Shown here: piece by piece, positions 1,997-35,559 of the stretch
How the letters are laid out: each line of letters opens with the position of its first letter
Numbering within the stretch: position 1 is the first letter of the stretch
DNA from: Candidatus Woesearchaeota archaeon
GTDB lineage: Archaea; Nanobdellota; Nanobdellia; SCGC-AAA011-G17; JACPNG01
DNA length: 64,000 bases
NCBI GenBank assembly: GCA_016185605.1
Contig: JACPNG010000015.1
Location: 7,103-71,102 of the forward strand
Direction: 5' to 3'
Translations under genes and position numbers: made by a program
The notes under the pieces: generated by a model
Database searches by the model: none
Seen by the model: the letters and a program-made list of their open reading frames with translations, nothing else
What the model was told of the DNA's origin: nothing

Positions 1997-3010
1997 TTAT
2001 GGAACTAATCTATCTCTACTATTTAAATGATTCCAGACTGTGGTTTTATTTATATTTAATTCTTTCCCTATCTTTTCATAACTTAGACCTTGATTCCTTA
2101 ATTCCATCATTTTATCCTTTAATTTTATCACTTCTCTATGCGGTTTTACCCATAACTTATAACTACTAACAATCTGTTTAAGCCTATCTTTTTTACGAAT
2201 AATTGTAAAGTTTATATATTTATCAAATAACTCAATAGATTTTCTATCTTGTACACTTAAGGTATAACTTGGCAATCTCGGTTTTTTATTCTTCTTAGAA
2301 TGTATTTTTGATTCAATACCAAAACCATTTAAGAGAGCTTTAACATCTTCTAGACCATTATTATTAATGGAAAAAGCCCTTATTCTTTTGCCCACTTCAT
2401 CTACATTGCCTTCAGAATCGAAAAAGCCTTTTATAAACTGAGATTGTATCTCTAAATCAGCTCTTTTTATTCTTTCAGGAACTCTCCACTTTTTAACTCC
2501 AAATTTGCCATAACATAACAGATTTTCACAGGCCTTTATTGAACATAATCTAGTTCTTGATTGATTATTCCAGTTACTGATTTTTGGGATATGAATTTCC
2601 TTGGTTGGATTGAGTCTATAAACTTGTGATAAACTATTTCTAAACTCATTAACAAATTCCTTATCTACAGCCGATAATCCAATCTGATATACTGATTTAT
2701 TAGAGTTATAGATTAAAAAACCATCACCACATAAAACCCCCAAGATATAAGCTTTCTCTAAACTAAGTTTCTTTGAAGAATTCGGAATTTGATTTTCAAA
2801 TATTCTAATTCTTCCACTTTGAACGCCTAACTTTGCAGCCTCTTTCCTCGAACGTCTCTTTATATTTAACTTATTAAGGTGATATATTATTATAGAATGA
2901 GATTTATTTAGTTTGCTTGCTATAGAACGAGTAGATTCTCCTTTCTGATAAAGTTGTTTAAATTGCTCTATTTCTTCTTTAGCGATTGGATGACCATTCA
3001 TTTTTTTCAA
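1997..3010 (-). CDS. free-standing LAGLIDADG homing-endonuclease-like protein with N- and C-terminal HTH domains
   Basis: 337 aa. Two LAGLIDADG-type motifs (LGVLCGDGFL and IKGFFDSEGNV). HTH-like segments at both ends (STRSIASKLNKSHSIIIYHL; LSYEKIGKELNINKTTVWNHL). Confidence 0.65.
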   Translation of the reverse strand: MKKMNGHPIAKEEIEQFKQLYQKGESTRSIASKLNKSHSIIIYHLNKLNIKRRSRKEAAKLGVQSGRIRIFENQIPNSSKKLSLEKAYILGVLCGDGFLIYNSNKSVYQIGLSAVDKEFVNEFRNSLSQVYRLNPTKEIHIPKISNWNNQSRTRLCSIKACENLLCYGKFGVKKWRVPERIKRADLEIQSQFIKGFFDSEGNVDEVGKRIRAFSINNNGLEDVKALLNGFGIESKIHSKKNKKPRLPSYTLSVQDRKSIELFDKYINFTIIRKKDRLKQIVSSYKLWVKPHREVIKLKDKMMELRNQGLSYEKIGKELNINKTTVWNHLNSRDRLVP

Positions 3011-7516: not shown

Positions 7517-8044
7517 ATGATTTCTTTCATAGAGATTCTAGAGATGATTATAGTGACTCTAGCAATAGGTTACATATTTTCTGGATTCATAAAATTTCCA
7601 TTTATTTCAAATTATGAATCGCTGAGATTATCCGTATATATTGCGGCACCTGCAGTCATATTGCATGAATTGATGCATAAGTTTGTAGCTATATTCTTAG
7701 GATTAAGCGCAACATTTCATGCTTCCTATCCTGGATTAGTTTTGGGTGTTATTCTGAAATTAATGGGTTCTCCCTTGCTAATCTTAGTCCCGGGTTATGT
7801 ATCAATTCCATTTACAAATCCAGTTTATGGTGCCATAGTTGCTTTTGCTGGTCCTTTGATTAATTTAATATTATGGGGATTAGCTGCTTTAGTATTAAAA
7901 TACAATAATAAATTATCGCAGAGAAGCATGACTATACTAGCATTGACAAAAAGAATTAACATAATCTTATTCTTCTTTAATATGATACCGATTGGGCCTT
8001 TTGACGGAGCCAAAGTATTGAATGGAATTATTTCTTTATTCTAA
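7517..8044 (+). CDS. membrane metalloprotease-like protein (HExxH; M50/site-2-protease-like)
   Basis: 175 aa, about 5 TM segments. HELMH motif in a TM helix and a GPFDG motif near the C-terminus. Confidence 0.4.
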   Translation: MISFIEILEMIIVTLAIGYIFSGFIKFPFISNYESLRLSVYIAAPAVILHELMHKFVAIFLGLSATFHASYPGLVLGVILKLMGSPLLILVPGYVSIPFTNPVYGAIVAFAGPLINLILWGLAALVLKYNNKLSQRSMTILALTKRINIILFFFNMIPIGPFDGAKVLNGIISLF

Positions 8045-10268
8045 AAATAATATAATAAGTTAGAAGTATTAATATTGTGATAATTAAGTTAGAGAAAGTA
8101 AATACTGGAAATGATTCTTCTATCAAGCATGATTGCCTGGCTAATGGCCTATATTTAGATTCGCATAATAGATTATTGCCTGTATAGGTGCATTTGTTTA
8201 TATCCCTAGTTCTGTAGCCCTGCTCATTGCATTCTGTCCATAAAGCGTTTGTGCAGTCCCATTCAGCTACGCATGATGATTCTCCTGGAGCGCATCCAAA
8301 CTCATCTACATTATTTATCTCTTCTAATGGGGTATCTGGACATTTATCATTTTCATTCTTGACTCCGTCGCAATCCGAATCGTCTTCTCCACAAGCTATA
8401 ACATTCAAGAGATTAGATGTTTTTGAACTTATTCCAGAAGATGCATTGAAATAGAATTCAGGCTCTCCCTGCAATAATCCATCGTCAACATTTACTATGC
8501 TCCATGAAGATTTAGCTTTTTTATTACTGAATATTTTAGACTGCGGGTCTGGAGATACATAATCATCCTGTCCTGCTAAATCATCTTCATAAACTTTAAA
8601 ATTCACCTGTCTGCCCTCGCAATATTCATCCCCCTCAACACTTAAATCCACTAAAGAGTTGGTTGTTGCTATATTAGTTAGCCAATTGGCTTTTATAATG
8701 CTGCAACATTCTGGGTCATATTTTTTAGCTGATTTATCATTTGTGCATAAGCCATCATTTGGGTTTGGTATGCAAACTCCTTGAATATTACAAACATTTC
8801 CTTTTATACAGCTTCCTTGTAAATTTGTACATTCTCCGCATAAACAATTCTCTCCTGTATCGCATATATTATTATTTTTACAGTTATCGCAAAATCCAGA
8901 AGGCAAATCTTGGGAGCATGTCTTGCATGTCTCTCCTAATTCTAATATGCCATTGCCGCATTTAGCTGATCCTATAGAGCATCCATTGCTGTCTACTGGA
9001 CCTATTTGAGGATTAGGGCATGTAGTTGTGCATTTATCTCTGTTATCTGGAATTTTATCATTATCGCAGTCTATCTGGCATGTTTTTGTTGTTAAGGAAT
9101 CGCATATTAAGTTGCTGCTGCAGAAATCTCTATTGCCGTCACAATCTTTAATTAAGCAGCTTTCCCCTAATTCTGATTCGCATTTATTATTCTGATTATT
9201 TGGTGGATTAGGGCATTCATTTATATCTGAAATGCATTTATTGGTTGTGCCGCACCAAACTTGATTTTGAGGACATCCTTCTCCTTGTATAGAGCATCCA
9301 TTGCTGTCTACTGGACCTATTTGAGGATTAGGGCATGTAGTTGTGCATTTATCTCTGTTATCTGGAATTTTATCATTATCGCAGTCTATCTGGCATGTTT
9401 TTGTTGTTAAGGAATCGCATACTAAACTATCTGAACAAAAGTCCCTATTAGTATCGCAATCTGAGCAAGAGCAGCTTTCTTTGTTTTCTGATTCGCATAT
9501 TCCATCTTTATCGCATACAAAATTAGCTCCGCAATCTGATTTACATGTATTATCCGAGCATAAAGTTTGTCCTTGAGGACAACCCCCATCTTGCGGGGAG
9601 ACACAAGCCCAATCACTGCCAACATTCAAACATATCTGTCCTAAATTACAACCAGCATCATCTGGACATGTAAAGCAATTCTCTCCTTGATCTAGGTTAT
9701 TATCGCCGCATTCTATAATTGATTCAGTAACTTCCAGCATTGGGGGGGATGAAATTATTGATAATAATCCTGTAGATGCTGTAAAATAATATTCTGGATT
9801 TCCAATTCCGTCATTCTGAAACTCAGCTATCCAAGAGCTTTCTGCTTTGTCATTTTTAAAATTAGCATTTTCCGGATTTCTAGCAACATCATCATCAGGA
9901 TTTGGAAATAGATCATCTTCCTTTACAATAAAATTTAATAAAAGGCTATTACAAGCGGATTTTCCTGTAACAGTCAAGGTTACATTATTTCCTTTGCTTA
10001 CTTTATTAGCTGACCATAGAGCAGATACTAAACTGCAGCATTCAATATCATCTTTATCTACCCCTGTATTAGGATTAGTGTCAAACTCATATCCATTATT
10101 CACATTGCAATTGTTGTCTATATTGTCATCGCATATTTCTTTAGCTCCGGGGTATATGTTTGGATTACTATCATCACAATCTATAGGATAATCTGTAATA
10201 TAAGAATAAGAATTTAGCATATTAATTAAAATTAAGCATATTAACAAAAAAATAAACTTTTTAATCAT
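8028..10268 (-). CDS. large Cys-rich secreted surface protein with thrombospondin-type-3-like Asp/Cys repeats and a C-terminal TM anchor
   Basis: 746 aa. N-terminal signal peptide. Repeated CQIDCDNDKIPDNRDKCTTTCPNPQIGPVDSNGCSI modules (Dx[DN]xDxxxDxxDxC). C-terminal PVFTF-TM-RIKK. Confidence 0.7.
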   Translation of the reverse strand: MIKKFIFLLICLILINMLNSYSYITDYPIDCDDSNPNIYPGAKEICDDNIDNNCNVNNGYEFDTNPNTGVDKDDIECCSLVSALWSANKVSKGNNVTLTVTGKSACNSLLLNFIVKEDDLFPNPDDDVARNPENANFKNDKAESSWIAEFQNDGIGNPEYYFTASTGLLSIISSPPMLEVTESIIECGDNNLDQGENCFTCPDDAGCNLGQICLNVGSDWACVSPQDGGCPQGQTLCSDNTCKSDCGANFVCDKDGICESENKESCSCSDCDTNRDFCSDSLVCDSLTTKTCQIDCDNDKIPDNRDKCTTTCPNPQIGPVDSNGCSIQGEGCPQNQVWCGTTNKCISDINECPNPPNNQNNKCESELGESCLIKDCDGNRDFCSSNLICDSLTTKTCQIDCDNDKIPDNRDKCTTTCPNPQIGPVDSNGCSIGSAKCGNGILELGETCKTCSQDLPSGFCDNCKNNNICDTGENCLCGECTNLQGSCIKGNVCNIQGVCIPNPNDGLCTNDKSAKKYDPECCSIIKANWLTNIATTNSLVDLSVEGDEYCEGRQVNFKVYEDDLAGQDDYVSPDPQSKIFSNKKAKSSWSIVNVDDGLLQGEPEFYFNASSGISSKTSNLLNVIACGEDDSDCDGVKNENDKCPDTPLEEINNVDEFGCAPGESSCVAEWDCTNALWTECNEQGYRTRDINKCTYTGNNLLCESKYRPLARQSCLIEESFPVFTFSNLIITILILLTYYIIFRIKK
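8973..9106. repeat. about 134-bp direct repeat, copy 1 of 2 (other copy 9288..9421), inside the 746-aa gene
   Basis: Near-identical nucleotide blocks (gagcatccattgctgtctactggacctatttgaggattagggcatgtagttgtgc...) spaced 315 bp apart. They encode the duplicated TSP3-like module. Confidence 0.8.
9288..9421. repeat. about 134-bp direct repeat, copy 2 of 2
   Basis: See copy 1. Identical over about 130 nt. Confidence 0.8.
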
Positions 10269-12283
10269 TTTATCCCTAAAATATTTCTTATCTGATTGAA
10301 TATATCAACATAATTGGTTATTGTTTTTGGCTGGCATAACTGGGCATTAGCATCTATTACTCCATCTCTGTCCCTGTCGCAAATCTCATTTACTTGGTTA
10401 TTGCAGTTTTCATCAACTAAATTTCCTAAATCGCAGCATTCTGATTTTCCAGGATTTACATTGGCATTATTATCATTGCAGTCATTATCACATTGTGTGT
10501 CATAACCATCATTATCATTGTCTGTTACTAAACTATTAAATTGGTTGCATGAAGCAGAACTGCATGAGCATGAATCTTGGCAGAAAGTATCTGCATTCTG
10601 ATAATCCCTATAAGTTCCAGAATAACAGCCATCTAGGTTATTGCAATTTAATTGCGGACATCCCCCTCGTGTTGGATCGCATGTAGCTCCGCATTTATCC
10701 TTTGTACATGCATAACTAAATGAGCCTTTATTCACGCATCCTGCAGAGCCACTATACTTGGTTCCGCTGCATTCATTACGCCATTCACATCTATTATCAT
10801 TACTGCATACAGAAGATGATGAATAAGAAGAGCATAATGAAGGGATTACATTAACTGTAGTTGTCTTATCTGTTCCTGATTTATATGACTTTGCTGTATC
10901 TACTGAGCATTTTATTGTTTTTGGGTTTCCAGTATATGCTCCTGCATTACAGTTAAATATTGCATTACTGCCCTGCCAGCTGCTAAATCCACAAAGATTA
11001 TTCTCAATAAAAGCACTTATGCTGTTAATATTGTCTATTGAAGAAGCGCAAGTAACTTGTATATTTGTATTTTCAACCGGATTTGAAATTGAGACTTGAA
11101 TGCTATTAACAGCAACTGGACATTGAGAATCTCCATGTTTTCCATCTATGCTGTCATAATCTGTCTCTCCATTGCAATTGTCATCTAAATAATTATTTCT
11201 GCACACTTCATTTACTCCTGGATTTACAGAAGCTGAATTATCATTGCAGTCATTTCCTCCTGATGTGCATATTGATGGAGTCCCTACTCTCTGAATATTA
11301 GAATCACAATAATTATCCTTATCATCATCGCATCCTTCATCTACTTGATTATTGCAATTATTATCTAAATTATCGCAAATTTCTGCTGTTGGAGTTCCCT
11401 GAGTAGCACTACAGCTTCCAGAGCATGTTACAGTTCCAGTCTTTTGGCATGTTCCTGTTCCAACAGTGCAAGAAGTTCCATATCCAACTGGATTAGGAGG
11501 GGTTGGTCCAGAACATTGACCATTGCATTGTATTGTTCCTCCAAATTGTCCGCATGCATTTTGATTACAATTTTGTCCGTAATTAGAGGGAAGAGCAGGA
11601 GTTGGTCCAGAACATTGCCCATTAATTTGTATTGTTCCTCCAAATTGTCCGCATGCATTTTGATTACAATTTTGTCCGTAATTAGGTGATACTCCGCATT
11701 GTCCAGAAATTAATCCATTATCTCTCCAAGAGCATCCATTACATGTTAGATAATTATTTCCACTACAACTATTCTGTCCATCAAAGCAAGAATTTCCAGA
11801 TCTTAAAACGCATTGCCCTGTACAGTCATTTAGATAACCGCAACTTCCTCCGCCGCAACTTGAGAATTTTGGAAATACTTGGGATTGTACATCTGGAATA
11901 CCAGTAATCCAAGGAATAGTCTTAACAAAAACAGTAATGTCTTGGTTTATTCTTGTACTGCAGCATATAACACTGTCTGGGCAGTCATATGTAAGTGTTA
12001 CAGGTTGATTATCTGGCACCTCTGTAAATTTGCCTCCATCATCAGCTGGTATATCTCCAAATGCCTGCACACACTCGAAATTCCCGTCCCTATCTGGCGT
12101 CCAAAAGTATCTTGGATCAGAATATCCTATAACTTGAGGAGGGGTAGCCCAGCATACTATTCTTAATAGTTCTGCTTCCGCATTATAAGGCTTAACTAAT
12201 AAAAATAATAATATAAAAGATAATAAAACAATGATATTTTTCTTATTATTGAAAAATTTAGTTTGCTGTAAACTCTTTCTCAA
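10265..12283 (-). CDS. large Cys-rich secreted protein with MopE-like putative metal-binding repeats
   Basis: 672 aa. Signal peptide. Tandem NYGQNCNQNACGQFGGTIQxNGQCSGPTP repeats. C-terminal CNDNNANVNPGKSECCDxGNxVDENCNNQVNE resembles the MopE-type motif. ATGA overlap with the downstream gene. Confidence 0.7.
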   Translation of the reverse strand: MRKSLQQTKFFNNKKNIIVLLSFILLFLLVKPYNAEAELLRIVCWATPPQVIGYSDPRYFWTPDRDGNFECVQAFGDIPADDGGKFTEVPDNQPVTLTYDCPDSVICCSTRINQDITVFVKTIPWITGIPDVQSQVFPKFSSCGGGSCGYLNDCTGQCVLRSGNSCFDGQNSCSGNNYLTCNGCSWRDNGLISGQCGVSPNYGQNCNQNACGQFGGTIQINGQCSGPTPALPSNYGQNCNQNACGQFGGTIQCNGQCSGPTPPNPVGYGTSCTVGTGTCQKTGTVTCSGSCSATQGTPTAEICDNLDNNCNNQVDEGCDDDKDNYCDSNIQRVGTPSICTSGGNDCNDNSASVNPGVNEVCRNNYLDDNCNGETDYDSIDGKHGDSQCPVAVNSIQVSISNPVENTNIQVTCASSIDNINSISAFIENNLCGFSSWQGSNAIFNCNAGAYTGNPKTIKCSVDTAKSYKSGTDKTTTVNVIPSLCSSYSSSSVCSNDNRCEWRNECSGTKYSGSAGCVNKGSFSYACTKDKCGATCDPTRGGCPQLNCNNLDGCYSGTYRDYQNADTFCQDSCSCSSASCNQFNSLVTDNDNDGYDTQCDNDCNDNNANVNPGKSECCDLGNLVDENCNNQVNEICDRDRDGVIDANAQLCQPKTITNYVDIFNQIRNILGIK
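11501..11690. repeat. tandem about 99-bp repeat (2 copies) inside the 672-aa gene
   Basis: ggtccagaacattg(a/c)ccatt...ttgtattgttcctccaaattgtccgcatgcattttgattacaattttgtccgtaatta occurs twice with a 99-nt period. Track ORFs 11428..11658(-) and 11444..11689(+) are frames of this repeat. Confidence 0.75.
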
Positions 12284-12968: not shown

Positions 12969-13599
12969 AAAAGAATGATATATTTATATTATTTAAATAT
13001 AACTAATATAGAATATAGGTTGGATTTCTTTAGTATGATATAAATATAATTTTTAAAGAATAACAAATAAAACCAAGCATTATATAACTAAAAGCTCCAA
13101 TCCTTCCTGGAGATTGTATAATTTGTACACTTAAATGAAATAATAACCCTATCAATAAAACAAAGAGTCTTATTTTGCTAATCCACAATCCTTTTTAAGA
13201 TATTCTTCCATTAGATTTATTTATGACTGGCTAGTTGGAATGGCATTTTATTTTTTAGTTTTGATATATCTTAATTAGGAAGTTTACAACTTTATTAGCA
13301 TGCCATTTATCAAATTCCCATAATACATTTTACATTTACTCTATTTCTAAAATATTTTAATTGATCTAAAAATTGAACATCTTTTTCATTAAAGTTGAGT
13401 TTATTATGTAAGAGGTTTTTGCCTTGTATGCAATATCATAATCCAAAACCTCGGCTCTTAGATTTTATATTAGTATCTCTAATTTTATAACATGATTTCT
13501 CAAATATTAGATAAATAGTTCTTGAATTTTGAGGATTTAGCTATATTTATGAAGAATTTAGCTGTGGTTTTTGAAATTAAGTAAATTAGAGATTTACTC

Positions 13600-14679
13600 T
13601 TAGAATTGGACTCCAGGATTCTCCTTTTGATAGAATGATTTTAACATTGGATGTGGAAAAGGCAACATTGCTATAAATGGTTGTTTTGAGGTATATGCTT
13701 CCGCTTTCAGCCATTCTGAATATAAGAATGATCCTGGAAGATGATTATATATCCCCCCTTCATTTGGGTGTTTTTGTGAGACTAATACTCTTAAATAATC
13801 CCTATAATCAATTGGATTTTTTCTCTTAGACAATAATTGTTCTCTTACTATATTATCAACTTCAGCTTCTTTTAATCTTTGATCAAGAGTAGAAAGTGTT
13901 TTCTGAAGATATTCTCCTCTCCAATTTAAAGGCACAATCTCTGTCTTTGTGTCCCAATAAACTGGACGACCACCATCAACGCCGAGTTTAAATGGGTCAA
14001 AACCAGGGGGGATTGACTTCTTATCTTTGACTTGATAAATCTGAAAATGAAGTTGCTCTGGTTGTAGTTCTGTATTAATATATCCACTATTCCCAGATAA
14101 TGCAATGACATCGCTTAAATTGATAGATAGATCTTTCTTCTTAATTATTCTTTTAGATAAATGGACATATGAACTTCTATATGTGCCATCACCATACTCA
14201 TCTTCGTGTGACAACCTTATTTTTTTTCCCCCCTGATAACTTTCATGAACACTTCTTATAAATCCTCTATTTGTTGGGACAACTGGTGTCCCTGTCGGAA
14301 CTTCATAATCCACAGCTCCAAATCCTTTATTCCATGATCCTGATGCATGCTCATTAAAATCTATGTAACGACCCCTCCAGTAAAGGAGTGAAGGTCCCCT
14401 AATTAAGTCTTGAGTCATTAAATAAGATTCCCAATGTCTATCTGCTATATAATTTAAACTATCTTTTCCCCCACATCCATTAAGCCATAAAAATGTCCAT
14501 CCCGCTAAACCAGCGGCATATTTTAGAAATCTTCTTCTTTCAGTGGAAAATATAGGAAGGTTATTTTTAAATTTACTTAGCTCCGCAATGCCTCCTTCGA
14601 CCAATCTTGAGTCTCTAACTCTATTTTCAATTTCACCAGATACCCCAACTTGTTTTTTCATCTTTCTGAGAAGTCGCAT
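13600..14679 (-). CDS. M23-family (LytM/lysostaphin-like) metallopeptidase with Tat signal and lipobox
   Basis: 359 aa. ERRRFLKYAAGLAGW twin-arginine motif followed by WLNGCGG lipobox. M23 core: GAVDYEVPTGTPVVPTNRGFI...SSYVHLS...IALSGNSGYINTELQPEQLHFQI. Confidence 0.7.
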   Translation of the reverse strand: MRLLRKMKKQVGVSGEIENRVRDSRLVEGGIAELSKFKNNLPIFSTERRRFLKYAAGLAGWTFLWLNGCGGKDSLNYIADRHWESYLMTQDLIRGPSLLYWRGRYIDFNEHASGSWNKGFGAVDYEVPTGTPVVPTNRGFIRSVHESYQGGKKIRLSHEDEYGDGTYRSSYVHLSKRIIKKKDLSINLSDVIALSGNSGYINTELQPEQLHFQIYQVKDKKSIPPGFDPFKLGVDGGRPVYWDTKTEIVPLNWRGEYLQKTLSTLDQRLKEAEVDNIVREQLLSKRKNPIDYRDYLRVLVSQKHPNEGGIYNHLPGSFLYSEWLKAEAYTSKQPFIAMLPFPHPMLKSFYQKENPGVQF

Positions 14680-14720
14680 TGCCTTATAAATCTTTCTTAC
14701 TTAAAAGAGACAACGTTTTA

Positions 14721-14996
14721 TTATTCACCAGAATCCGCCCCATCATCACTACCATCGTCATCGTCGTCATCTCCGGGACCAGGACCACCATCATCTCCAC
14801 CACCAGGATTATAATAAGGATCAGAACTACTCTGAGAATTATATGTAACTGTTATTAGTTTATTTTTAAAAGTGACAATTAAATTAGAGCTTTGTGCTAT
14901 AATATTTTTTATATTGAATATAACTAATAATAAGATAAGAATAACAACAGCTATTATTACATAACTAAGCTTTAGATTCTTAAACCTCTTTTTCAT
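14721..14996 (-). CDS. small TM protein with Gly/Asp-rich C-terminal tail
   Basis: 91 aa, N-terminal TM, then GGGDDGGPGPGDDDDDDGSDDGADSGE. Confidence 0.35.
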   Translation of the reverse strand: MKKRFKNLKLSYVIIAVVILILLLVIFNIKNIIAQSSNLIVTFKNKLITVTYNSQSSSDPYYNPGGGDDGGPGPGDDDDDDGSDDGADSGE

Positions 14997-15088: not shown

Positions 15089-16204
15089 ATGAAATATAAA
15101 AAATCCTTAATTTTATTTATTTTAATATTAGTACTAATAATTCTATTCTTCAAAATCAACTTCTCAATAAATGACATAAGAAATATAGAAAAAGAAGAAT
15201 TAGAAAACAGGTTAAACTTAGCAGGAGAATGGTTATTAAGAATGCAGATGTCTAACGGGAATATGGAATATGAGTATTTTCCATTAACAGATGAATACTC
15301 AAAAGAAAGAAATATGATAAGGCATACTGCCAGCCTATGGGGTTTTGGTTTATTGTATCAGAATACAAAGGATCAAAAATATTCTAATGCATTAGAAAAG
15401 GGAATTAATCTTGTATTAAATGAATATTATACAGAAGAGGATGATTTTGCATATATAAAATTCAATAATGAAGTAAACATAGGAACTTCTGGATTTATTA
15501 TTCTAGCTATGCTGAGCTCAGAAAATCCCAATAAATATAAAAATGAAATAGAAAAGCTAAAGAATTTTATAATAAGACAACAAAGGGAGGATGGAAGCTT
15601 TAAGACTTATTATCTAGAAGAAAAAGAAGACTCTGAATATTATCCTGGAGAGGCTTTATTAGCATTAATTAATCTATATGAGTATGATAAAAATGAAGAA
15701 TATCTAGATGTGTTAAATAAGGCGCTTCCTTATTATATGAATTATTTTGATGAAAATCCAAATGTAGCTATGGTGACATGGCATTCCCAGGCTTATTCTA
15801 AAGCTTTCCTAATAACAAAAAATCCAGAATATGCCAAATATGTATTTATATTAAATGACTGGGTAACTAAAAGACAGAACTTTGGGGGGGATAAACTTAT
15901 TTTGGGGGGATATGGCTCAAATCCGGGAATTTCAACTTCTGTTTACAATGAAGGAGTGAATGATGCTTTTCTAGTGGCTAAAGAATTAAATAATGAAGAT
16001 AAAATAAAAAGATACAAATTATCAATTAAACTGGCTAATCAATTTCTACTAAAATTGCAGTCAATGGACAAAAACAATAAAAATTCATTTGGAGGATTTG
16101 GAACTAATTTAAATAATCCCAACCAGAGAATAGATCATACCCAGCATTCAATAAACTCATTGAGAAAAACAATAGAAAATTATGAATTGATATATGAGAA
16201 TTAA
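15089..16204 (+). CDS. membrane-anchored alpha/alpha-toroid-like protein (prenyltransferase/squalene-oxidase-repeat-like)
   Basis: 371 aa. N-terminal TM. QREDGSF-type repeat motif and a periodic aromatic/Gly pattern. Function unknown. Confidence 0.4.
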   Translation: MKYKKSLILFILILVLIILFFKINFSINDIRNIEKEELENRLNLAGEWLLRMQMSNGNMEYEYFPLTDEYSKERNMIRHTASLWGFGLLYQNTKDQKYSNALEKGINLVLNEYYTEEDDFAYIKFNNEVNIGTSGFIILAMLSSENPNKYKNEIEKLKNFIIRQQREDGSFKTYYLEEKEDSEYYPGEALLALINLYEYDKNEEYLDVLNKALPYYMNYFDENPNVAMVTWHSQAYSKAFLITKNPEYAKYVFILNDWVTKRQNFGGDKLILGGYGSNPGISTSVYNEGVNDAFLVAKELNNEDKIKRYKLSIKLANQFLLKLQSMDKNNKNSFGGFGTNLNNPNQRIDHTQHSINSLRKTIENYELIYEN

Positions 16205-20458: not shown

Positions 20459-20880
20459 TTCAAAATTACTTTATCTCCCAAGTTAATATTATTTTCTATT
20501 GCAAAATTATTATTTACCTCCAACACATATTTGGCTTTATCTTTTGGTTTATAGCTTATACATTCATCATCGCATGGAACAGCGTGTTTTATGTCCACAA
20601 TCTTTAAATTCTTAGAGATAAAAATCATATCCAATGGAATTAATGTATTCTTCATCCAGAAACTATGATAATCCTCATCTTCAAAAACAAACAGCATCCC
20701 GGAATTTTTATCTAGGCTTTCTCTGAACATTAATCCTTGTGTTCTTTCTGAGTCAGAATCTGCAATTTCAATATTAACTTTTATCTCATTATCTTCATTA
20801 TTAATTATCAGATAATCCTTATTAGCACAACCATTCATAAGTATTAATGGAACTAAAGCTATCAATAATAACATTTTCAT
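20455..20880 (-). CDS. DUF192 (COG1430-like) secreted protein
   Basis: 141 aa. ERTQGLMFRESL...MLFVFEDE...FWMKNTLIPLDMIF matches the DUF192 pattern. Stop overlaps the leuS start region (operon). Confidence 0.55.
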   Translation of the reverse strand: MKMLLLIALVPLILMNGCANKDYLIINNEDNEIKVNIEIADSDSERTQGLMFRESLDKNSGMLFVFEDEDYHSFWMKNTLIPLDMIFISKNLKIVDIKHAVPCDDECISYKPKDKAKYVLEVNNNFAIENNINLGDKVILK

Positions 20881-23800
20881 TCTAAAAATATTGCTGGTTT
20901 TCCAGGCTTGGCTTTTTTTGATTTATTTTCTGGATCATATTTATTCTTGTCAGAAACTGAATAAACAATAACATCCTTGTTTACTTTAATGCTCAATTCT
21001 TTAGAATTATAGTTATTAACTTCATTAGGCAGTGAATAAACATAAACCTTGCTGAATTCTTTTCCTTGTTTTTCTTTCATCACATTAATTACATTTGTTA
21101 TATCTGAAACCAAATTATTAAATGATTTTTCAGCCTGTTCAAATTTTATATCTATCTTAGATTCATCATATTCTGGCCATTTTTCCAGGCTCAGGAATTT
21201 TTTATTTCCAATTTTTTCCCATAACTCTTCTGTAATATGAGGACAAAATGGATGTATTAACTTAAGGAATTTCTCCAAATCTTTCTTGCTTATTTCATTT
21301 TCCAAGGAATCAAATAAATCCCTAATCTTAATAATTGCCAAGTTATACTTGAATTCTTCTATATCTTGAGTAACATCTTTTATTGTTTTGTTTAATTTAC
21401 TTTCAACCTTTCTGGATGTTTTTCCCATCTTCACATTTGAAACATAATCTATTAGCCTTCTGACAAATCTTAGGCTTCCATCTATGCCTTTAGAACTCCA
21501 TTCCATATCTTTGTCAGGAGCAGCCCCTGATATCAAGAATAATCTTGCTGTGTCTATCCCATATTCTTTTGATACAGCTTCTGGCAAGACAACATTGCCT
21601 CTGGATTTTGACATTACAAATCCGTCTTCCCCGTGCAACATTCCTTGGTTGAATAACTTGATGAAAGGCTCATCAATATTTACATATCCCATATTCCTAA
21701 GGGCTTTAGTAAAAAATCTTGCATAAATTAAATGCATACAGGCATGCTCTGCCCCCCCAATATACTGGTCAACAGGCATCCAATAGTTTGTTTTCATAGT
21801 ATCAAATGGTTTCTTATTATTTTTATTATCGCAATATCTTAAGAAGTACCAAGAAGAATCAAAGAAAGTGTCCATTGTATCTGTTTCTCTTTTAGCATTC
21901 TTTTTGCATCTAGGGCATTTTACATTTAAAAATTTTTTATTTGTTGTTAATGGGTTTCCTTTTCCAAATTTAACCTTGTCTGGAAGTTTTACAGGAAGAT
22001 CTTTTTCTTGAACTGGAATAATTCCGCAAGAATCACAATAAATTATTGGAATCGGAGTCCCCCAATATCTTTGTCTTGAGATTAGCCAGTCCCTTAATTT
22101 GTAATTAACAGTTAACTTTCCTATTTTTTTATTTTCTAATTCTTTGGTTATCTTTATCTTGGCTTCTTCTGAATTTAGTCCATTGAACTTTTCAGAATTA
22201 GTTAGAATACCTTCATCAACATATGCCTCTTGTGTACAATTCAACATTCTCAGAGCATGTTTATGAGTAGTTGGTGTCAAAAATTTCTCAAGCTCCTTTA
22301 AGTTAAGCCATTTTATTTCATGGATCTCCTTTTCAGCTTCTGAAATATTTTTTTGCTTGCTATTTTGCAATTCAAAATAAAGAACGTGTGCATGAGCAAA
22401 TCTATTTATCTTTTTAGGCACATGATAAAATCTTCCATGCACTCTGCCAAAATCTTTAATTAATTTAGGATTTAAATATCCAGTTTCTTCTTCAATTTCT
22501 ATCTTGGCTGCTTCTTCTGGAGTTTGGTTTTTTTCTATTCCACCAGTAATGAAAGTTCCCCAAACAACTTTTTTCCATTTTAATCCTATATATTTTTCTT
22601 CAGACCAGTGTTTTACAATAGCAATAATTGCATCTCTATGATCAAATGGTAAACCATCAACAATCTTACCTGGTTCTGTATCTTGACTATAAACTGGCTC
22701 TATTACATTCACTATTTTAAGATTGTACTTCTTTGCAAACTCAAAATCTCTTTGGTCATGAGCTGGAACTGCCATTACCATCCCAGAGCCATATTCAGCA
22801 ATGACAAAATTTCCTGCATAAACTGGAATTTTTTGATTTGTTAATGGATGTAATGCATAACTCCCTGTAAACACCCCTTCTTTATCCAACTTTTCTATAT
22901 CTTCTTTTTTTGTTGATTTTATTTTTCTTAAGAAATTATCAACCTCTTTCTTCTGTTCTTTTGTTACAATCTCATGAAGCCTTGGATGCTGGGCGGAAAT
23001 AACCATAAAAGTTACCCCAAATAAAGTATCTGGACGAGTAGTAAATATTTTCCATTTTCTAAATAATAAATTTAAGACTTCCTCTTCCTTTTCTCCATTA
23101 TAATGTGTCTTATTTCCCATTGCAGTGATAATTTGTGCTTCTAATTTATTAGCTATTTCCATGGGTTGATTAATAGGAACAATATGATCATTTTTATCTA
23201 CAAGAATAAATATTTGTCTAACATTCTCCTTAATTTTATTAAAATCAAACTTCCAATCACAATAATTTGATAGGGCAGGTCTAGGTTTGTTATCAATGAA
23301 AGCTTTGCCGGAGATAATTCTTTCTTTTGTTGGAAGTGGAGGAGCAACCATTATTAATTTGCCTATCTTTATTCTCCCAGATGAGAGTAATTTCATCATC
23401 AAAATATTTCCAAGAGAATGTCCTATTACTATGCTGTTCTCATTAAAATTATAATTATTTAAAACAAACTCTGATTGTTCTTTATACTGCGGATTATTTG
23501 TATTTGGCAAATCAGGAGAAAATGATACTCTTCCACCCTTATTTTCAATTTCTTTTCTTAACCACAACCAAAAAGCATCTTTAGAACTATCTCCATATGC
23601 ATGAAGAAAAACAAACTCTTTATCTTTTACATCTTCAAATATTTCAAATTCAATCTCAGTTCCATAGCTTTTTCCAATCCAGTTCTCCTGCATTATTTTT
23701 ATTCTTTCAGACCATTGTAATTTTTCTATATCTTTCAAAAGCTCATCTGCATATTTTGTTGTCTTGATGAACCATTGTTCTAATTGTTTTGTCTCAACAT

Positions 23801-24347
23801 CTGTATCTTTATGACGCCAGCATTTTCCGTTATGGACTTGCTCATTTGCCAATACAGTATCGCATTTAGAGCACCAGTTAACACTTGCTTTTGATTTATA
23901 CACTAATCCATTCTCCAAGAATTTCAAAAAGAAATACTGGTTCCATTTATAGTATTCTGGAGTATGAGTCATTAATAACCTATCCCAGTCATAACTTAAT
24001 CCAAGCTCTTTTTGCTGCCTTATAAAATTTTTAATGGAATTCTCTGTGAATTTCTTTGGATGCTCTTTGGCTAGAATAGCTGCATTCTCTGCTGGAAGTC
24101 CAAATGAATCATATCCCATTGGATATAATACATTAAATCCCATCATCCTTTTAAATCTTGAATAAATATCTCCAATAGTATAGTTAAATGCATGACCCAT
24201 ATGCAGTCCAGAGCCAGAAGGATATGGAAACATCTCAAGAACATAGAATTTTTTCTTATTATTCTCTTTAACTTTGAATACTTTTTTCTGTTCCCATCTC
24301 TTCTGCCATTTCTTTTCTATTTTGCTGAAATCAACCATTATATTCAT
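20877..24347 (-). CDS. leuS: leucyl-tRNA synthetase (archaeal type) with two extra hydrolase-like domains inserted around the CP1 editing domain
   Basis: 1156 aa. HMGH (HIGH) and VMSKS (KMSKS) motifs, NWIGKSYG, TTRPDT and AVPAHDQRDFEFA editing motifs. About 195 extra aa with a GHSLG nucleophile elbow between WIGKS and TTRPDT (approx. nt 23058..23642). About 145 extra aa with a Nudix-box-like GGIEKNQTPEEAAKIEIEEETG after the editing core (approx. nt 22233..22670). Confidence 0.85.
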   Translation of the reverse strand: MNIMVDFSKIEKKWQKRWEQKKVFKVKENNKKKFYVLEMFPYPSGSGLHMGHAFNYTIGDIYSRFKRMMGFNVLYPMGYDSFGLPAENAAILAKEHPKKFTENSIKNFIRQQKELGLSYDWDRLLMTHTPEYYKWNQYFFLKFLENGLVYKSKASVNWCSKCDTVLANEQVHNGKCWRHKDTDVETKQLEQWFIKTTKYADELLKDIEKLQWSERIKIMQENWIGKSYGTEIEFEIFEDVKDKEFVFLHAYGDSSKDAFWLWLRKEIENKGGRVSFSPDLPNTNNPQYKEQSEFVLNNYNFNENSIVIGHSLGNILMMKLLSSGRIKIGKLIMVAPPLPTKERIISGKAFIDNKPRPALSNYCDWKFDFNKIKENVRQIFILVDKNDHIVPINQPMEIANKLEAQIITAMGNKTHYNGEKEEEVLNLLFRKWKIFTTRPDTLFGVTFMVISAQHPRLHEIVTKEQKKEVDNFLRKIKSTKKEDIEKLDKEGVFTGSYALHPLTNQKIPVYAGNFVIAEYGSGMVMAVPAHDQRDFEFAKKYNLKIVNVIEPVYSQDTEPGKIVDGLPFDHRDAIIAIVKHWSEEKYIGLKWKKVVWGTFITGGIEKNQTPEEAAKIEIEEETGYLNPKLIKDFGRVHGRFYHVPKKINRFAHAHVLYFELQNSKQKNISEAEKEIHEIKWLNLKELEKFLTPTTHKHALRMLNCTQEAYVDEGILTNSEKFNGLNSEEAKIKITKELENKKIGKLTVNYKLRDWLISRQRYWGTPIPIIYCDSCGIIPVQEKDLPVKLPDKVKFGKGNPLTTNKKFLNVKCPRCKKNAKRETDTMDTFFDSSWYFLRYCDNKNNKKPFDTMKTNYWMPVDQYIGGAEHACMHLIYARFFTKALRNMGYVNIDEPFIKLFNQGMLHGEDGFVMSKSRGNVVLPEAVSKEYGIDTARLFLISGAAPDKDMEWSSKGIDGSLRFVRRLIDYVSNVKMGKTSRKVESKLNKTIKDVTQDIEEFKYNLAIIKIRDLFDSLENEISKKDLEKFLKLIHPFCPHITEELWEKIGNKKFLSLEKWPEYDESKIDIKFEQAEKSFNNLVSDITNVINVMKEKQGKEFSKVYVYSLPNEVNNYNSKELSIKVNKDVIVYSVSDKNKYDPENKSKKAKPGKPAIFLE

Positions 24348-24414: not shown

Positions 24415-24501
24415 GGGCCTGTAACTCAGTTTGGATAGAGTGTCAGCCTTCTAAACAATGAAGTGAGCTGAAAGTCCGGGGTTCAAATCCTCGCAGGCCC
24501 G
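24415..24501 (+). tRNA. tRNA-Arg (anticodon UCU) with a short (about 12-nt) intron adjacent to the anticodon loop
   Basis: Acceptor GGGCCTG/CAGGCCC. D-arm ACTC-AGTTTGGATA-GAGT. Anticodon stem TCAGC/GCTGA with loop CTTCTAA plus inserted acaatgaagtga (CTTC/GAAG pairing suggests a relaxed BHB). T-arm CGGGG-TTCAAAT-CCTCG. No encoded CCA. Confidence 0.75.
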
Positions 24502-34594: not shown

Positions 34595-35539
34595 GGCTCT
34601 GGTGCAATCCCAATATTTAAGTAGTATAGAGGCATTAGCCCCCTTAATTTTATAAGGTTATTAACAAAAAGGAAGGTGATGCCCCTATGGCTAATGAAGA
34701 GTATGAAGACTACTTAAAGTTTATTGATTGTGCATTGGAGATTTCTAATAATATTCCCAGATACTTTTCCAAGTATTCCAATAAGATTTATTGCAATCAT
34801 CAGAAACTAGCAATATATATACTGATGCAGAAGATGAGAAGGACCTACAGGGGGATTATATCATGGTTAAAATCCAATAATGATGCATGCCTATATCTGG
34901 GAATATGCAAAATTCCAGTACATACAACCATAGTAAGGTTTGCCAAGAGAATCAGCAAATATCTTCATTTAATATTAGACATAAGAAAAGCGGATAGTGT
35001 TGCTGTTGATTCCACTGGATTTGAATTAGAATCAAAAAGCTATTACTACAGAAAAATGCAGTATTCTAAGGATAAACAGAGAGCAAAGAGGTTTATGAAG
35101 CTGAGTATAGTTGCTGATATAGATAAACAGCTTATACTTGATTATAGGATTAGAAGGGATTACAAGAGATGCAACACAGAGTTTAGAAGCATGATTAAGG
35201 ATATGGACATTAATTATGTCATAGCTGACAAGGGATATGACTCTTATGACAACAGGAATTTTGTGATAAGGAAGCTAAAAGCAATTCCTATTATCCCAGT
35301 AAGAAATTATACAAATTACTATGGCTATCTAAAGGGCAGAAGGATTAAAGGGGATAAATATCATCAGAGAAGCAAAATAGAAAGCATATTCTCCTCTATT
35401 AAGAGAAAATACGGCTCTGTAATTAGATCAAGAAGTTTTATATCACAAAAGACAGAGCTTATAGCTAAGCTCATAGCATACAATATAGACAGGAAGATTA
35501 GCTATTTACTATTTATTATCAGAGGGTTGCACCAGAACC
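34595..35539 (+). mobile_element. insertion sequence (IS4/IS5-type DDE transposase) with imperfect 16-17-bp terminal inverted repeats and 8-bp target-site duplication
   Basis: IRL GGCTCTGGTGCAATCCC (34595..34611). IRR GGGTTGCACCAGAACC (35524..35539), 15/17 identical with one indel. Flanking direct repeat TTGTTTGG at 34587..34594 and 35540..35547. Confidence 0.7.
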
Positions 35540-35559
35540 TTGTTTGGATATTTTCGTAA
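34687..35559 (+). CDS. DDE transposase (IS4/IS5 family)
   Basis: 290 aa. AVDSTGFE...VIADKGYDS...KIESIF DDE triad pattern. The ORF reads 20 nt past the IS right end. Confidence 0.75.
   Translation: MANEEYEDYLKFIDCALEISNNIPRYFSKYSNKIYCNHQKLAIYILMQKMRRTYRGIISWLKSNNDACLYLGICKIPVHTTIVRFAKRISKYLHLILDIRKADSVAVDSTGFELESKSYYYRKMQYSKDKQRAKRFMKLSIVADIDKQLILDYRIRRDYKRCNTEFRSMIKDMDINYVIADKGYDSYDNRNFVIRKLKAIPIIPVRNYTNYYGYLKGRRIKGDKYHQRSKIESIFSSIKRKYGSVIRSRSFISQKTELIAKLIAYNIDRKISYLLFIIRGLHQNLVWIFS

Follow-up and report, generated by a model that had tools for sequence, protein, structure and literature searches.

Gene content of the locus

The DNA stretch analysed here (64 kb, further referred to as the window) belongs to a tiny symbiotic archaeon of the Woesearchaeota and carries on its minus strand an open reading frame which a preliminary description, made from the sequence, took for an exported M23 peptidase. 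The frame proved to be real, with the identical protein deposited at NCBI as MBI2667751.1 (353 aa). The archaeal setting assumed for it is confirmed by the presence of genes for TFE-alpha, Nre, ribosomal P0 with insertion domain, S8e, TFB, diphthamide synthase, ZPR1 and tRNA-splicing endonuclease. The features essential for further consideration are as follows.

13600..14679, minus strand: open reading frame of the M23 family, 359 aa counted from the first ATG
13600..14661, minus strand: probable coding sequence of the M23 gene, 353 aa, with a predicted start
14684..14690, minus strand: TTTATAA, a TATA-box-like element read directly from the sequence
14721..14996, minus strand: partner gene, 91 aa, whose homologs adjoin the M23 gene in loci L001, L002, L005/L006, L016 and L017
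12969..13599, no strand assigned: non-coding AT-rich spacer downstream of the M23 gene, 631 nt, GC 0.23 (from stop codons and searches)
55324..62556: SLT lytic transglycosylase, 2410 aa (Pfam SLT, E=1e-21)

Since the identical NCBI protein is 353 aa long, the N-termini of homologs align to Met7 and TTTATAA is situated upstream, the ATG at 14661 (Met7) is the probable true start of the frame. The centre of TTTATAA lies ~26 nt upstream of this ATG and is preceded by a purine-rich stretch, and its position suggests that the M23 gene may possess its own promoter and give a leaderless transcript. As to annotation, the NCBI record of this protein already bears the right family name.

Catalytic and C-terminal domains

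The M23 domain expected for this protein was found by Pfam (PF01551 Peptidase_M23, E=2.5e-10, 40.8 bits against a cut-off of 28.7, residues 122-218), and the protein has the LytM/lysostaphin beta fold. Its domains and the residues which might form the active site are positioned as follows.

13975..14394, minus strand: M23B-type catalytic beta domain, residues 96-235 (Pfam, model and family alignment)
14347-14349, minus strand: putative zinc ligand H111 (residue conservation)
14308-14310, minus strand: putative zinc ligand D124 (residue conservation)
14161-14163, minus strand: predicted catalytic His H173 (residue conservation)
14053-14055, minus strand: Q209, at the place of the canonical first His of HxH (family alignment)
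14047-14049, minus strand: putative zinc ligand H211 (residue conservation)
13603..13974, minus strand: family-exclusive C-terminal alpha-helical domain, residues 236-359 (structure model and sequence search)

Two motif assignments of the preliminary description had to be abandoned. The segment GAVDY, considered as HxxxD-like, does contain D124, with Phe120 standing four positions earlier in a column devoid of His in all 37 family members; HFQI, read as HxH, corresponds to Q209-L-H211, with Gln in place of the first His and the zinc-ligand His retained. Intact HxH is characteristic of 27 of the 37 members. The central Y-x-H-L motif is present as Y171-V-H173-L, its histidine column being His in 36 of 37 sequences, and the column of D124 is Asp in the same proportion (36/37), while position 211 is occupied by His in 32 members and by Asp in 3. 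H111, whose column is His in 35 of 36 members, appears as a candidate replacement for the missing histidine of HxxxD, and its role as a ligand is suggested by this conservation. The H-x12-D spacing between H111 and D124 is maintained in 27 of 35 members; the same spacing separates H23 and D36 of LasA, as seen on the 3it5 sequence, and His22/Asp36 serve as zinc ligands in beta-lytic protease (PMC8715609). Alignment of the family profile with LasA by hhalign covered residues 152-235 alone with 45% probability and did not set H111 opposite to LasA H23, and M23A members (LasA and beta-lytic protease) are not the closest to the window protein in sequence and fold.

The C-terminal part is modelled with pLDDT mostly of 94-98. 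Among 1.84 billion representatives it matched 46 sequences, always residing at the C-terminus in full-length hits, and no Pfam family, solved fold or viral fold corresponded to it. PF01551 is the sole Pfam detection in the window protein, and a recognised cell-wall-binding domain is absent. The helical domain probably either fills the place of this absent module or controls entry to the groove.

Likely substrate and the glycine-rich neighbour

The window encodes a second enzyme potentially acting on murein, the SLT lytic transglycosylase, whose gene is separated from the M23 gene by 41 kb; at locus L002, a gene combining SLT and LysM is found 6 kb from the M23 gene. Large lytic murein transglycosylases of Woesearchaeota were reportedly noted by Castelle in 2015 (AR20). 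Their presence in this group is documented by Vigneron (2022; PMC9723730) in a work with no mention of M23 peptidases (0 occurrences). M23 peptidoglycan hydrolases have been described in four Nanoarchaeia genomes, with patchy distribution and fast turnover, and the archaeal Tat-signal M23 protein Woldo was demonstrated to kill a bacterium experimentally (PMC12352652).

With evenly balanced confidence, we favour the reading that the gene product is an exported zinc endopeptidase with M23 (LytM/lysostaphin) fold from a DPANN-restricted family, which would most likely be tethered to the surface and directed against bacterial murein. The murein target is assumed from the biology of the M23 family, whose enzymes bacteria and phages employ against bacterial walls, from the published archaeal precedent and from the SLT enzyme of this window. 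After export, the enzyme would cleave short peptide bridges rich in glycine or containing D-amino acids, the likeliest substrate being murein cross-links of bacteria touched by the episymbiotic archaeon, where it might operate jointly with the 2410-aa SLT enzyme.

The gene adjacent to the M23 frame offers another possible target. Its 91-aa product has an N-terminal membrane anchor or signal, a conserved LIVTFKNKLITVTYN core and a Gly/Asp-rich acidic tail that includes NPGGGDDGGPGPGDD, and is the most Gly-dense of 74 ORFs of the window. A secreted poly-glycine protein adjoins the family gene in 8 of 10 non-redundant loci, several of which come from related genomes so that the counts are not independent, and none is found beside it in L009 and L013. 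At L001, L002, L005, L007 and L014, the sole ORF of the locus with at least 9 Gly per 20 aa is located 40-85 bp from the M23 gene. The small gene with the Gly/Asp tail remains adjacent across three different arrangements, preceding the M23 gene in the window and L001 and following it in L002, L005/6, L016 and L017. In L007/8 and L014, the same position is taken by an unrelated poly-Gly neighbour composed of a signal peptide, Cys/Gly-rich stretch and Hint-like domain, the Hint assignments being below Pfam cut-offs. Sequence search with the 91-aa protein itself returned two near-identical sequences alone, both on short contigs, and its distribution was judged from neighbourhoods of the family loci.

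Thus, the poly-glycine segment of the neighbour might itself be the native substrate or regulator, implying that the M23 enzyme matures or trims an archaeal surface protein or that the tail acts as a substrate mimic keeping it latent. We regard this as unlikely. Recurrence of a poly-Gly ORF beside the M23 gene despite changed gene order, and the filling of the same place by a second unrelated type, speak for it; so does the lack of a murein-binding domain in the window protein taken together with the ability of lysostaphin-type M23 enzymes to cut Gly-Gly bonds (PMC8715609). This support is weakened by the small and non-independent set of ten loci, by the two of them that have no such neighbour and by the sub-threshold Hint assignments. 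M23 enzymes processing a dedicated protein partner are, to our knowledge, without precedent. In its extended form, also improbable in our estimation, the M23 family and its secreted poly-Gly neighbour would constitute a two-gene surface module, where the Gly-Gly-type endopeptidase would either mature its partner or be kept latent by that protein until freed on contact with a host or prey cell.

Integrity of the active site

Departure from the canonical set of residues raises the question whether the enzyme is active at all. According to the favoured reading, H111, D124 and H211 would build the metal site, H111 as a candidate ligand, and H173 would be catalytic. The protein might instead be a catalytically attenuated or dead LytM-type module, like those of EnvC, NlpD and DipM, that binds a peptide or wall ligand or activates another hydrolase, for example, the SLT enzyme. 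Indeed, one canonical ligand position is lost; nevertheless, the Asp and the last His remain and a conserved His is available as a replacement, whereas classical degenerate LytM domains are generally described as lacking the ligands themselves. Near invariance of three plausible ligands and the central His at 35-45% identity is difficult to account for without a metal site, and no amidase partner is seen in the 64-kb window. The His-to-Gln change at position 209 arose at least three times (in the window protein with P0002, in P0015 with P0025 and in P0028 with P0030) while all other catalytic residues stay conserved, which suggests that Gln is tolerated and further argues against a dead module. 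Gln209 may weaken or alter catalysis in the window copy. The reading as an attenuated or dead module looks rather unlikely.

Predicted export and possible attachment to the membrane

The N-terminal part of the protein can be subdivided into three segments.

14542..14661, minus strand: conserved region of ~40 aa before the RR motif, residues 7-46 (homolog alignment)
14521..14541, minus strand: twin-arginine motif E47-R-R-R-F-L-K53 (family conservation)
14473..14520, minus strand: h-region Y54-W65 followed by lipobox-like L66-N-G-C69 (sequence and family comparison)

The first of them follows the family pattern G-x-IEEVV-x-D-x-RLVD-x-G ... NAPSF-x-P with E18, L26, L34 and P42 invariant or nearly so in the family alignment, and helices are predicted in the structure model at residues 3-21 and 24-35. 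Conservation ahead of the RR motif is unusual for the n-region of a signal peptide.

The twin-arginine sequence ERRRFLKY noticed in the preliminary description occupies residues 47-54 and represents the sole combination of a Tat-like motif with a hydrophobic stretch among 244 window ORFs of at least 40 aa. It reproduces the Tat consensus (S/T)-R-R-x-F-L-K as E-R-R-R-F-L-K and is accompanied by a short weakly hydrophobic h-region, the uncharged stretch after the motif being ~12-15 residues long with mean Kyte-Doolittle values of 0.3-1.4. In the family, RRxF[LMF][KRQN] is found in 35 of 51 full-length members and persists across relatives with mere 35-45% identity. TIGR01409, the top NCBIfam model by member count, matched 25 of 37 members (best E=2.5e-4), the score of the window protein being 11.9 bits, below the cut-off of 16.7.

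The WLNGCGG sequence, also pointed out at the outset as lipobox-like, does follow the short hydrophobic stretch and places its Cys at residue 69. The archaeal lipobox is defined as [L/V/I][A/S/T/V/I][G/A/S]C ending the signal peptide, and lipobox proteins together with AliA (arCOG02177) are prevalent among DPANN archaea (PMC12462473). In L-N-G-C positions -3, -1 and +1 fit the lipobox, whereas Asn at -2 does not and is off the bacterial consensus as well. The hydrophobic stretch is followed by Cys in about two thirds of the family. Cys preceded by G, A or S is present in 30 of 44 RR-bearing members; a relaxed form of the motif fits 30 of the 44, and the strict one 8. Nothing in the window points to AliA. 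The closest relatives, P0002-P0006, have no Cys and contain AxA-type sites instead.

Taken together, these features are compatible with the following sequence of events. The M23 protein would fold in the cytoplasm, possibly acquiring zinc there, and the conserved RRxFLK signal with its short weak h-region would direct it into the Tat pathway. In the window copy Cys69 of LNGC is probably lipid-modified, which would leave the enzyme tethered on the outer face of the archaeal membrane, and the closest relatives with AxA-type sites are probably released.

TatA and TatC were searched for by Pfam and motif scans, and neither was found among ORFs of the 64-kb window, which is part of the genome; no statement on Tat in Woesearchaeota was found in the literature. 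Among 141 ORFs of related loci, Tat-like motifs are essentially limited to M23 proteins, which is uninformative as to the machinery. Alternatively, RR might not function as a Tat signal and the protein might be a type II membrane protein, with the N-region as a small cytoplasmic domain, the hydrophobic stretch as a Sec/YidC anchor and the arginines obeying the positive-inside rule. The segment before RR is unusually long (~41 aa from Met7) and conserved, the window protein scores under the TIGR01409 cut-off, the window has no Tat genes, and Sec is the main route in non-halophilic archaea. An additional RRDFVK motif is located upstream of the conserved region in P0032 and downstream of it in P0029, so that topology may vary within the family. 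All this is in line with a membrane anchor, but most members keep the near-consensus RRxFLK rather than merely basic residues, a weakly hydrophobic stretch of 12-15 residues has the character of a Tat h-region and lacks the length needed for a stable membrane helix, and a Cys or AxA site comes after it. On balance, a non-Tat topology appears rather improbable.

Family distribution and origin of the gene

The family is small (~50 clusters) and is seen solely in Woesearchaeota and Aenigmatarchaeota, according to a genome scan with 20 closer sequences and two peptide patterns, from which divergent members may escape. Among 5.8 billion proteins, 37 matches were obtained at E<=1e-3, with the same full-length architecture throughout and every named one belonging to DPANN. 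No close bacterial, phage or plasmid relative was encountered, the best plasmid and phage matches showing 28-33% identity over at most 45% of the protein. These two circumstances, the absence of such relatives and the confinement of the family to DPANN, make recent bacterial origin unlikely. As a possible bacterial host, "Rhodospirillales" (L015) was considered and rejected, its copy being a truncated pseudogene in the low-GC tail of a high-GC contig.

In several Woesearchaeota genomes, family genes occupy a shared locus linked with TFE and AlaRS. The locus of the window is rearranged relative to related genomes. The window protein is 46% identical to the copy from the same locus in L002, flanking orthologs being 58-87% identical, and 53% identical to an Aenigmatarchaeota copy. 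Rearrangement, the lowered identity relative to flanking orthologs and the closer Aenigmatarchaeota copy fit with paralog replacement or exchange among DPANN archaea. Tandem M23 paralogs (three in L001 and two in L007), considered together with the same difference in identity, give evolution of the family an arms-race-like appearance.

Horizontal acquisition was initially proposed from the raised GC content of the gene and from the neighbouring gap, assumed to be possibly decayed. GC content is indeed elevated (0.356 against a mean of 0.3075, sd 0.031, for 54 ORFs; rank 4, z=+1.5), but as a foreign signature this does not hold: GC3 is 0.233 against a mean of 0.262 (z=-0.47), and the excess is confined to codon positions 1 and 2, where it reflects amino-acid content. 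Thus, there is no compositional sign of recent transfer. The gap is gene-free as claimed, since 12969..13599 contains stops in all six frames, no tRNA and no Rfam match at E<=1, but signs of decay are not seen: it shows no resemblance to the M23 family, the small partner gene or the neighbours found in related loci. Tblastn with all family and all L002 proteins gave nothing inside the gap, Smith-Waterman scores of the gap against partner proteins were at or below the shuffled null, and no convincing flanking repeats were found at the gap, only AT-rich chance repeats. Conservation within the spacer is limited to 22 nt that match exactly the sequence immediately preceding the orthologous 229-aa gene in L002, which is probably the promoter of that gene; the spacer end nearest to 12969 likely carries the promoter of the 236-aa gene.

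With GC3 not deviant and the gap free of decay, horizontal acquisition is unsupported in its initial form and survives in a weaker one, as exchange among DPANN archaea. Recent gain of a bacterial M23 gene marked by raised GC and a decayed neighbourhood is very improbable. In its favour are the fourth rank of the gene in GC among 54 ORFs, the rearranged locus with the adjoining 631-bp non-coding stretch and the mainly bacterial occurrence of M23 peptidases, which makes an ancient origin of the domain in bacteria likely. Against it, GC3 falls slightly under the average of the window, named matches are DPANN-only with a C-terminal domain exclusive to the family, plasmid and phage matches are distant, the TFE/AlaRS-linked locus is common to several Woesearchaeota genomes, the gap holds no gene remnants and the sole bacterial-labelled copy is a truncated pseudogene.

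Comparison with known systems and implications

In comparison with M23B peptidases such as lysostaphin, LytM, LytU, zoocin A, ShyA/MepM, Pgp3 and Csd1-3, the window family is devoid of the HxxxD histidine and has the candidate H111 separated from Asp by 12 residues; the window copy contains QxH rather than HxH, family-exclusive helical C-domain and N-terminal cap helices instead of SH3b, LysM or PG_binding, and its host is an archaeon. With M23A enzymes (LasA/staphylolysin, beta-lytic protease, and pseudoalterin) the family shares the His-x12/13-Asp arrangement in which the first two zinc ligands of those enzymes occur. Degenerate LytM factors (EnvC, NlpD, DipM, and SpoIIQ) are generally described as devoid of their metal ligands and, in cells that have murein, as scaffolds or activators of amidases, whereas the window family keeps three candidate ligands and the catalytic His in an organism with neither murein nor a known amidase partner. 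Lytic murein transglycosylases of Woesearchaeota (PMC9723730) belong to the same organisms and have the same inferred purpose, attack on bacterial murein, but are different proteins cutting the glycosidic bond, while M23 enzymes cut the peptide bond.

A close parallel is provided by Woldo from Halogranum salarium and archaeal modular peptidoglycan hydrolases (PGHs) (Strock et al., 2025; PMC12352652), which also combine an archaeal M23 domain with a twin-arginine signal and for which use against bacterial walls is likewise proposed. Woldo, however, has two PG_binding_1 domains and branches with M23 of Bacillota, whereas the window family has neither a recognised binding domain nor a close bacterial relative; it further differs by its non-canonical active site, lipobox-like Cys and poly-Gly partner gene. 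Modular archaeal PGHs are defined by the coexistence of catalytic and wall-binding domains (Strock et al., 2025), and the window protein lacks the second. The family stayed outside the 2025 archaeal wall-hydrolase survey because it has no known binding domain, and such hydrolases may be under-counted in archaea. The existence of archaeal Tat-signal M23 wall hydrolases has thus been known since their publication in 2025, and the basic picture is unchanged; distinctive here are the small archaeon-only family, its unusual active site, private extra domain and glycine-rich secreted partner gene.

For enzymologists, the apparently rebuilt metal site of M23, with the histidine moved 9 residues upstream, and the repeated presence of Gln in place of a supposedly essential histidine constitute a natural experiment. 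In the recurrent poly-Gly partner, the M23 enzyme has a candidate substrate or regulator that can be tested, and the two-gene module, if true, would be an undescribed archaeal system for surface-protein processing or control of weapon latency, with an enzyme building its metal site in the M23B fold by means of a relocated histidine ligand. DPANN archaea are ultrasmall, mostly uncultured and live attached to other cells. If the favoured reading is correct, a tethered murein endopeptidase and a giant transglycosylase would give Woesearchaeota both bond-cutting activities for opening the bacterial wall, which would support the view of some of them as parasites or predators of bacteria rather than of other archaea.

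Gene, start and setting

13600..14679, minus strand: M23 family ORF, 359 aa
14721..14996, minus strand: glycine-rich partner ORF, 91 aa, 41 nt upstream of the M23 ORF

The M23 peptidase identity put forward in the preliminary description is borne out by Pfam PF01551, which exceeds its threshold on residues 122-218 (E=2.5e-10; residues are counted from the first ATG), while NCBIfam gives nothing more than partial sub-threshold matches to Pgp3, ShyA and MepM. Among solved structures, the sequences closest to it are those of LytU, zoocin A, Pgp3, ShyA and lysostaphin (the family profile reaching E-values as low as 1e-12). We read the product as an exported, probably Tat-routed zinc endopeptidase, probably lipid-tethered in this copy and most likely acting on bacterial murein, and hold this reading with about even confidence. 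The NCBI entry MBI2667751.1, recorded on a 97-kb contig and already bearing the correct family name, is identical to the ORF product counted from Met7. Since the N-termini of homologs coincide with Met7 in the alignment and a TTTATAA element (14684-14690) is centred about 26 nt upstream of its ATG, the usual distance between an archaeal TATA box and the start of a leaderless transcript, the true start is probably Met7 (ATG at 14661).

The archaeal context claimed for the gene is evident across the entire window, with TFE-alpha, TFB, Nre, S8e, L1, ribosomal P0 with its insertion domain, diphthamide synthase, ZPR1 and tRNA-splicing endonuclease (47858..48421). The same window has an 87-nt tRNA (24415..24501, plus; Rfam match of 55.6 bits, missed by ARAGORN), which may contain an intron. 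Leucyl-tRNA synthetase (20877..24347, minus; 1156 aa) carries synthetase, editing and anticodon-binding domains together with additional Pfam matches to NUDIX (residues 578-696, E=3e-14) and Ser_hydrolase (248-418, E=2e-6) that look like unusual insertions or fusions. Two LAGLIDADG_3 plus HTH proteins, free-standing and homing-endonuclease-like, and one DDE_Tnp_1 transposase (1997..3010, minus; 46764..47861, plus; 34687..35559, plus) mark the genome as having mobile elements, none of them adjoining the M23 gene. Downstream of the M23 locus lie two large, probably secreted Cys-rich proteins of 746 and 672 aa (8028..12283, minus), the latter with MopE-type putative metal-binding repeats. On the other side, a 371-aa protein (15089..16204, plus) starts with a membrane anchor and shows weak similarity, below threshold, to (alpha/alpha)6 glycoside hydrolases (GH88, pectate-lyase and GH127-type); in related genomes its slot is taken by toxin-antitoxin pairs and the M23 gene.

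The glycine-rich neighbour

The partner starts with a signal or membrane anchor, continues with a conserved LIVTFKNKLITVTYN core (LIVTFKNKxITVTYN across loci) and ends in a Gly/Asp-rich acidic tail, and has the highest glycine density among 74 window ORFs; it gives a weak Pfam match, below threshold, to a YxzE-like putative bacteriocin (E=0.004). Among the fetched loci carrying family genes (L001-L017), partner homologs stand directly beside the family gene, in either order, at the following positions, and one adjoins M23 in every locus of the window's subclade.

L001: 9608-9910
L002: 11132-11491
L005 (L005/6): 11111-11470
L016: 2083-2313
L017: 3902-4309

In the other subclade (L007/8 and L014) the M23 neighbour is a different secreted protein, with a signal peptide, a Cys/Gly-rich stretch (e.g., CSCGGGGGGGGCSGGG) and then a Hint/intein-like domain, whose Pfam matches are all below cut-offs; the L007 and L014 neighbours are mutually homologous (E=1e-11).

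L007 4876-5733, minus strand: Hint-like neighbour
L014 11225-11908, minus strand: Hint-like neighbour

The neighbour is the sole Gly-rich ORF present in five loci, and a poly-Gly secreted protein is paired with the family in 8 of 10 non-redundant loci, a small and not fully independent sample. Because lysostaphin-type M23 enzymes cut Gly-Gly bonds (PMC8715609), the partner could be a substrate or a tethered inhibitor; its presence could also be a coincidence among related genomes. We consider it rather unlikely that the partner, instead of murein, is the true substrate or regulator.

The active site

Active-site columns in all 37 family members (query numbering)
Position 111: no role in HxxxD enzymes; His 35/36
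Position 120: canonical His of HxxxD; F, Y, W, L, M, R, S, N or P, His in no member
Position 124: Asp of HxxxD; Asp 36/37
Position 173: catalytic His (Y-x-H-L); His 36/37
Position 209: first His of HxH; His 27, Gln 6 (the window protein among them), Thr or Asn 3
Position 211: second His of HxH, zinc ligand; His 32, Asp 3

Two motifs proposed initially are not found as described. GAVDY had been taken as HxxxD-like, but the LytU and Pgp3 alignments place the His column at Phe120 or an adjacent non-His residue, and none of the 37 members has His there; what was cited as an HFQI-type HxH reads Q209-L-H211 in the window protein. Exactly 12 residues stand between His111 and Asp124 in 27 of 35 members, the same spacing as that of H23 and D36, the first two zinc ligands of the M23A enzyme LasA (verified on the 3it5 sequence); another M23A enzyme, beta-lytic protease, has His22 and Asp36 in these roles (PMC8715609). 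From this conservation and the analogy with M23A ligand spacing we infer a metal site formed by H111, D124 and H211 in an M23B-type fold; profile alignment of the family to LasA did not reach the H111 region. Gln209 appears on the neighbour-joining tree in three separate pairs of alignment members (the window protein with P0002, P0015 with P0025, P0028 with P0030), and since the other catalytic residues are all kept in these pairs, the sequences argue that Gln is tolerated here rather than a step towards decay. Clearly degenerate members do exist (P0034 and P0037). We consider it improbable that the M23 domain serves as an attenuated module that binds or activates.

Putative export signal and N-terminus

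The claimed twin-arginine motif with a hydrophobic stretch was confirmed: E-R-R-R-F-L-K spans residues 47-53 and is the sole such combination among 244 window ORFs. An RR-type motif occurs at about position 40-51 in 44 of 51 full-length members (RRxF[LMF][KRQN] in 35 of 51), followed by a short, weakly hydrophobic stretch of the sort that Tat signals usually have. TIGR01409, a curated model of the Tat signal, matches 25 of 37 members, the most of any NCBIfam model (best E=2.5e-4), the window protein scoring 11.9 bits, under the 16.7-bit cut-off. No TatA/TatC genes were detected within the 64-kb window, no published statement on Tat in Woesearchaeota was found, and in non-haloarchaeal archaea lipoprotein export proceeds mostly via Sec (PMC12462473). 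Tat routing is thus well supported by motif conservation but unproven, and we give little credence to the RR motif not being a Tat signal, which would fit any of the proposed functions.

As for the lipobox-like WLNGCGG, the hydrophobic stretch does terminate in L-N-G-C69, but Asn at -2 departs from the bacterial consensus, and the closest relatives (P0002-P0006) have an A-E-A site in place of Cys. A Cys after G, A or S is present in 30 of 44 RR-bearing members, but a frequently polar or charged residue at -2 leaves only 8 of the 44 in line with the bacterial lipobox consensus. According to a published report (PMC12462473), DPANN archaea commonly have lipobox proteins as well as AliA, the lipidation enzyme. 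The approximately 40 residues preceding the RR motif are predicted to be helical and are conserved, E18, L26, L34 and P42 being invariant or nearly so. Such conservation is, to our knowledge, not a feature of ordinary signal-peptide n-regions. In P0032 an extra RRDFVK signal with a hydrophobic stretch precedes the conserved N-region and the usual RR is gone, and P0029 has a second motif, RREFFK, inside a downstream insertion; judging from such sequences, N-terminal topology or processing may differ among members.

Distribution and the question of transfer

Among 5.8 billion proteins, only 37 matches were obtained at E<=1e-3, all sharing one full-length architecture; those with a named source come exclusively from Woesearchaeota or Aenigmarchaeota. 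The pattern scan of 185,579 species-representative genomes gave three Woesearchaeota loci and one Aenigmatarchaeota locus, all in groundwater MAGs, plus one truncated copy.

L015 10001-10384: truncated family copy, contig JAYGEH010000054.1, binned as 'Rhodospirillales bacterium' MAG

In this copy a stop codon directly follows GAVDYDVP and Asn replaces His111; it sits at a contig end with 46% GC, against 64% for the contig, and is read as a pseudogene (a dead transferred fragment) or an assembly chimera. The best plasmid and phage matches (28-33% identity) are confined to the M23 domain.

The preliminary description had taken raised GC and a possibly decayed gap to suggest horizontal acquisition. 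GC is indeed locally high (0.356, rank 4 of 54 ORFs), but it is codon positions 1 and 2 that account for the excess, and GC3 is not raised (0.233 vs a mean of 0.262); therefore, composition gives no sign of recent transfer. The 631-bp spacer is AT-rich (GC 0.23), with stops in every frame, no tRNA and no Rfam hit up to E=1, so that it is gene-free as stated; the supposed decay finds no backing, as comparison with family, neighbouring and partner proteins yielded no similarity above the shuffled null, and no convincing repeats were detected. A 22-nt stretch of it is matched exactly in L002, a related-genome locus, immediately before the orthologous gene, and probably marks the promoter of a 236-aa gene. 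Recent transfer from bacteria is accordingly very improbable.

Locus order and rearrangement

In L002, L005/L006 and L017 the family gene is found close to TFE-alpha, followed by the small gene and then an AMMECR1-like gene, with AlaRS upstream in L002 and L005/L006; two MopE-repeat genes follow in L002, syntenic with the Cys-rich pair of the window. Proteins flanking the window gene are 58-87% identical to those of L002, whereas the M23 protein shares 46% with the L002 copy vs 53% with an Aenigmatarchaeota copy. Since, in addition, the M23 gene of the window flanks the small gene on the opposite side and has the spacer after it, while its closest relative P0002 (71% identity) keeps the usual order, the locus has been rearranged, or its M23 gene swapped for another family member. 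Tandem paralogs occur as well:

L001 9973-13262: three family genes, Aenigmatarchaeota contig
L007 5818-7896: two family genes

The second L007 paralog, a shorter M23 protein (296 aa), has an RREFLQ signal of its own, and its catalytic motifs are degenerate.

Proposed function

As an exported endopeptidase, the window enzyme would act outside the cell, most likely on murein cross-links of contacted bacteria, alongside a giant SLT lytic transglycosylase.

55324..62556, minus strand: giant SLT protein, 2410 aa, sole recognised domain C-terminal SLT (PF01464, E=1e-21)

This protein is of the same kind as the large lytic murein transglycosylases reported in Woesearchaeota (PMC9723730); directly upstream of its gene, with a 4-nt overlap, is a 449-aa ORF with no Pfam match. 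Archaeal Tat-signal M23 wall hydrolases, including experimental bacterial killing, were published in 2025 (PMC12352652), but the DPANN-restricted family falls outside that survey's definition because it is without a binding domain. New in the family are the relocated candidate His ligand, the recurrent Gln at a supposedly essential position and a private C-terminal domain, as well as the conserved pre-RR region, the poly-Gly partner gene and the restriction to DPANN. The family's fast divergence, paralogy and local turnover resemble the arms-race pattern that has been reported for wall hydrolases of archaea (PMC12352652).
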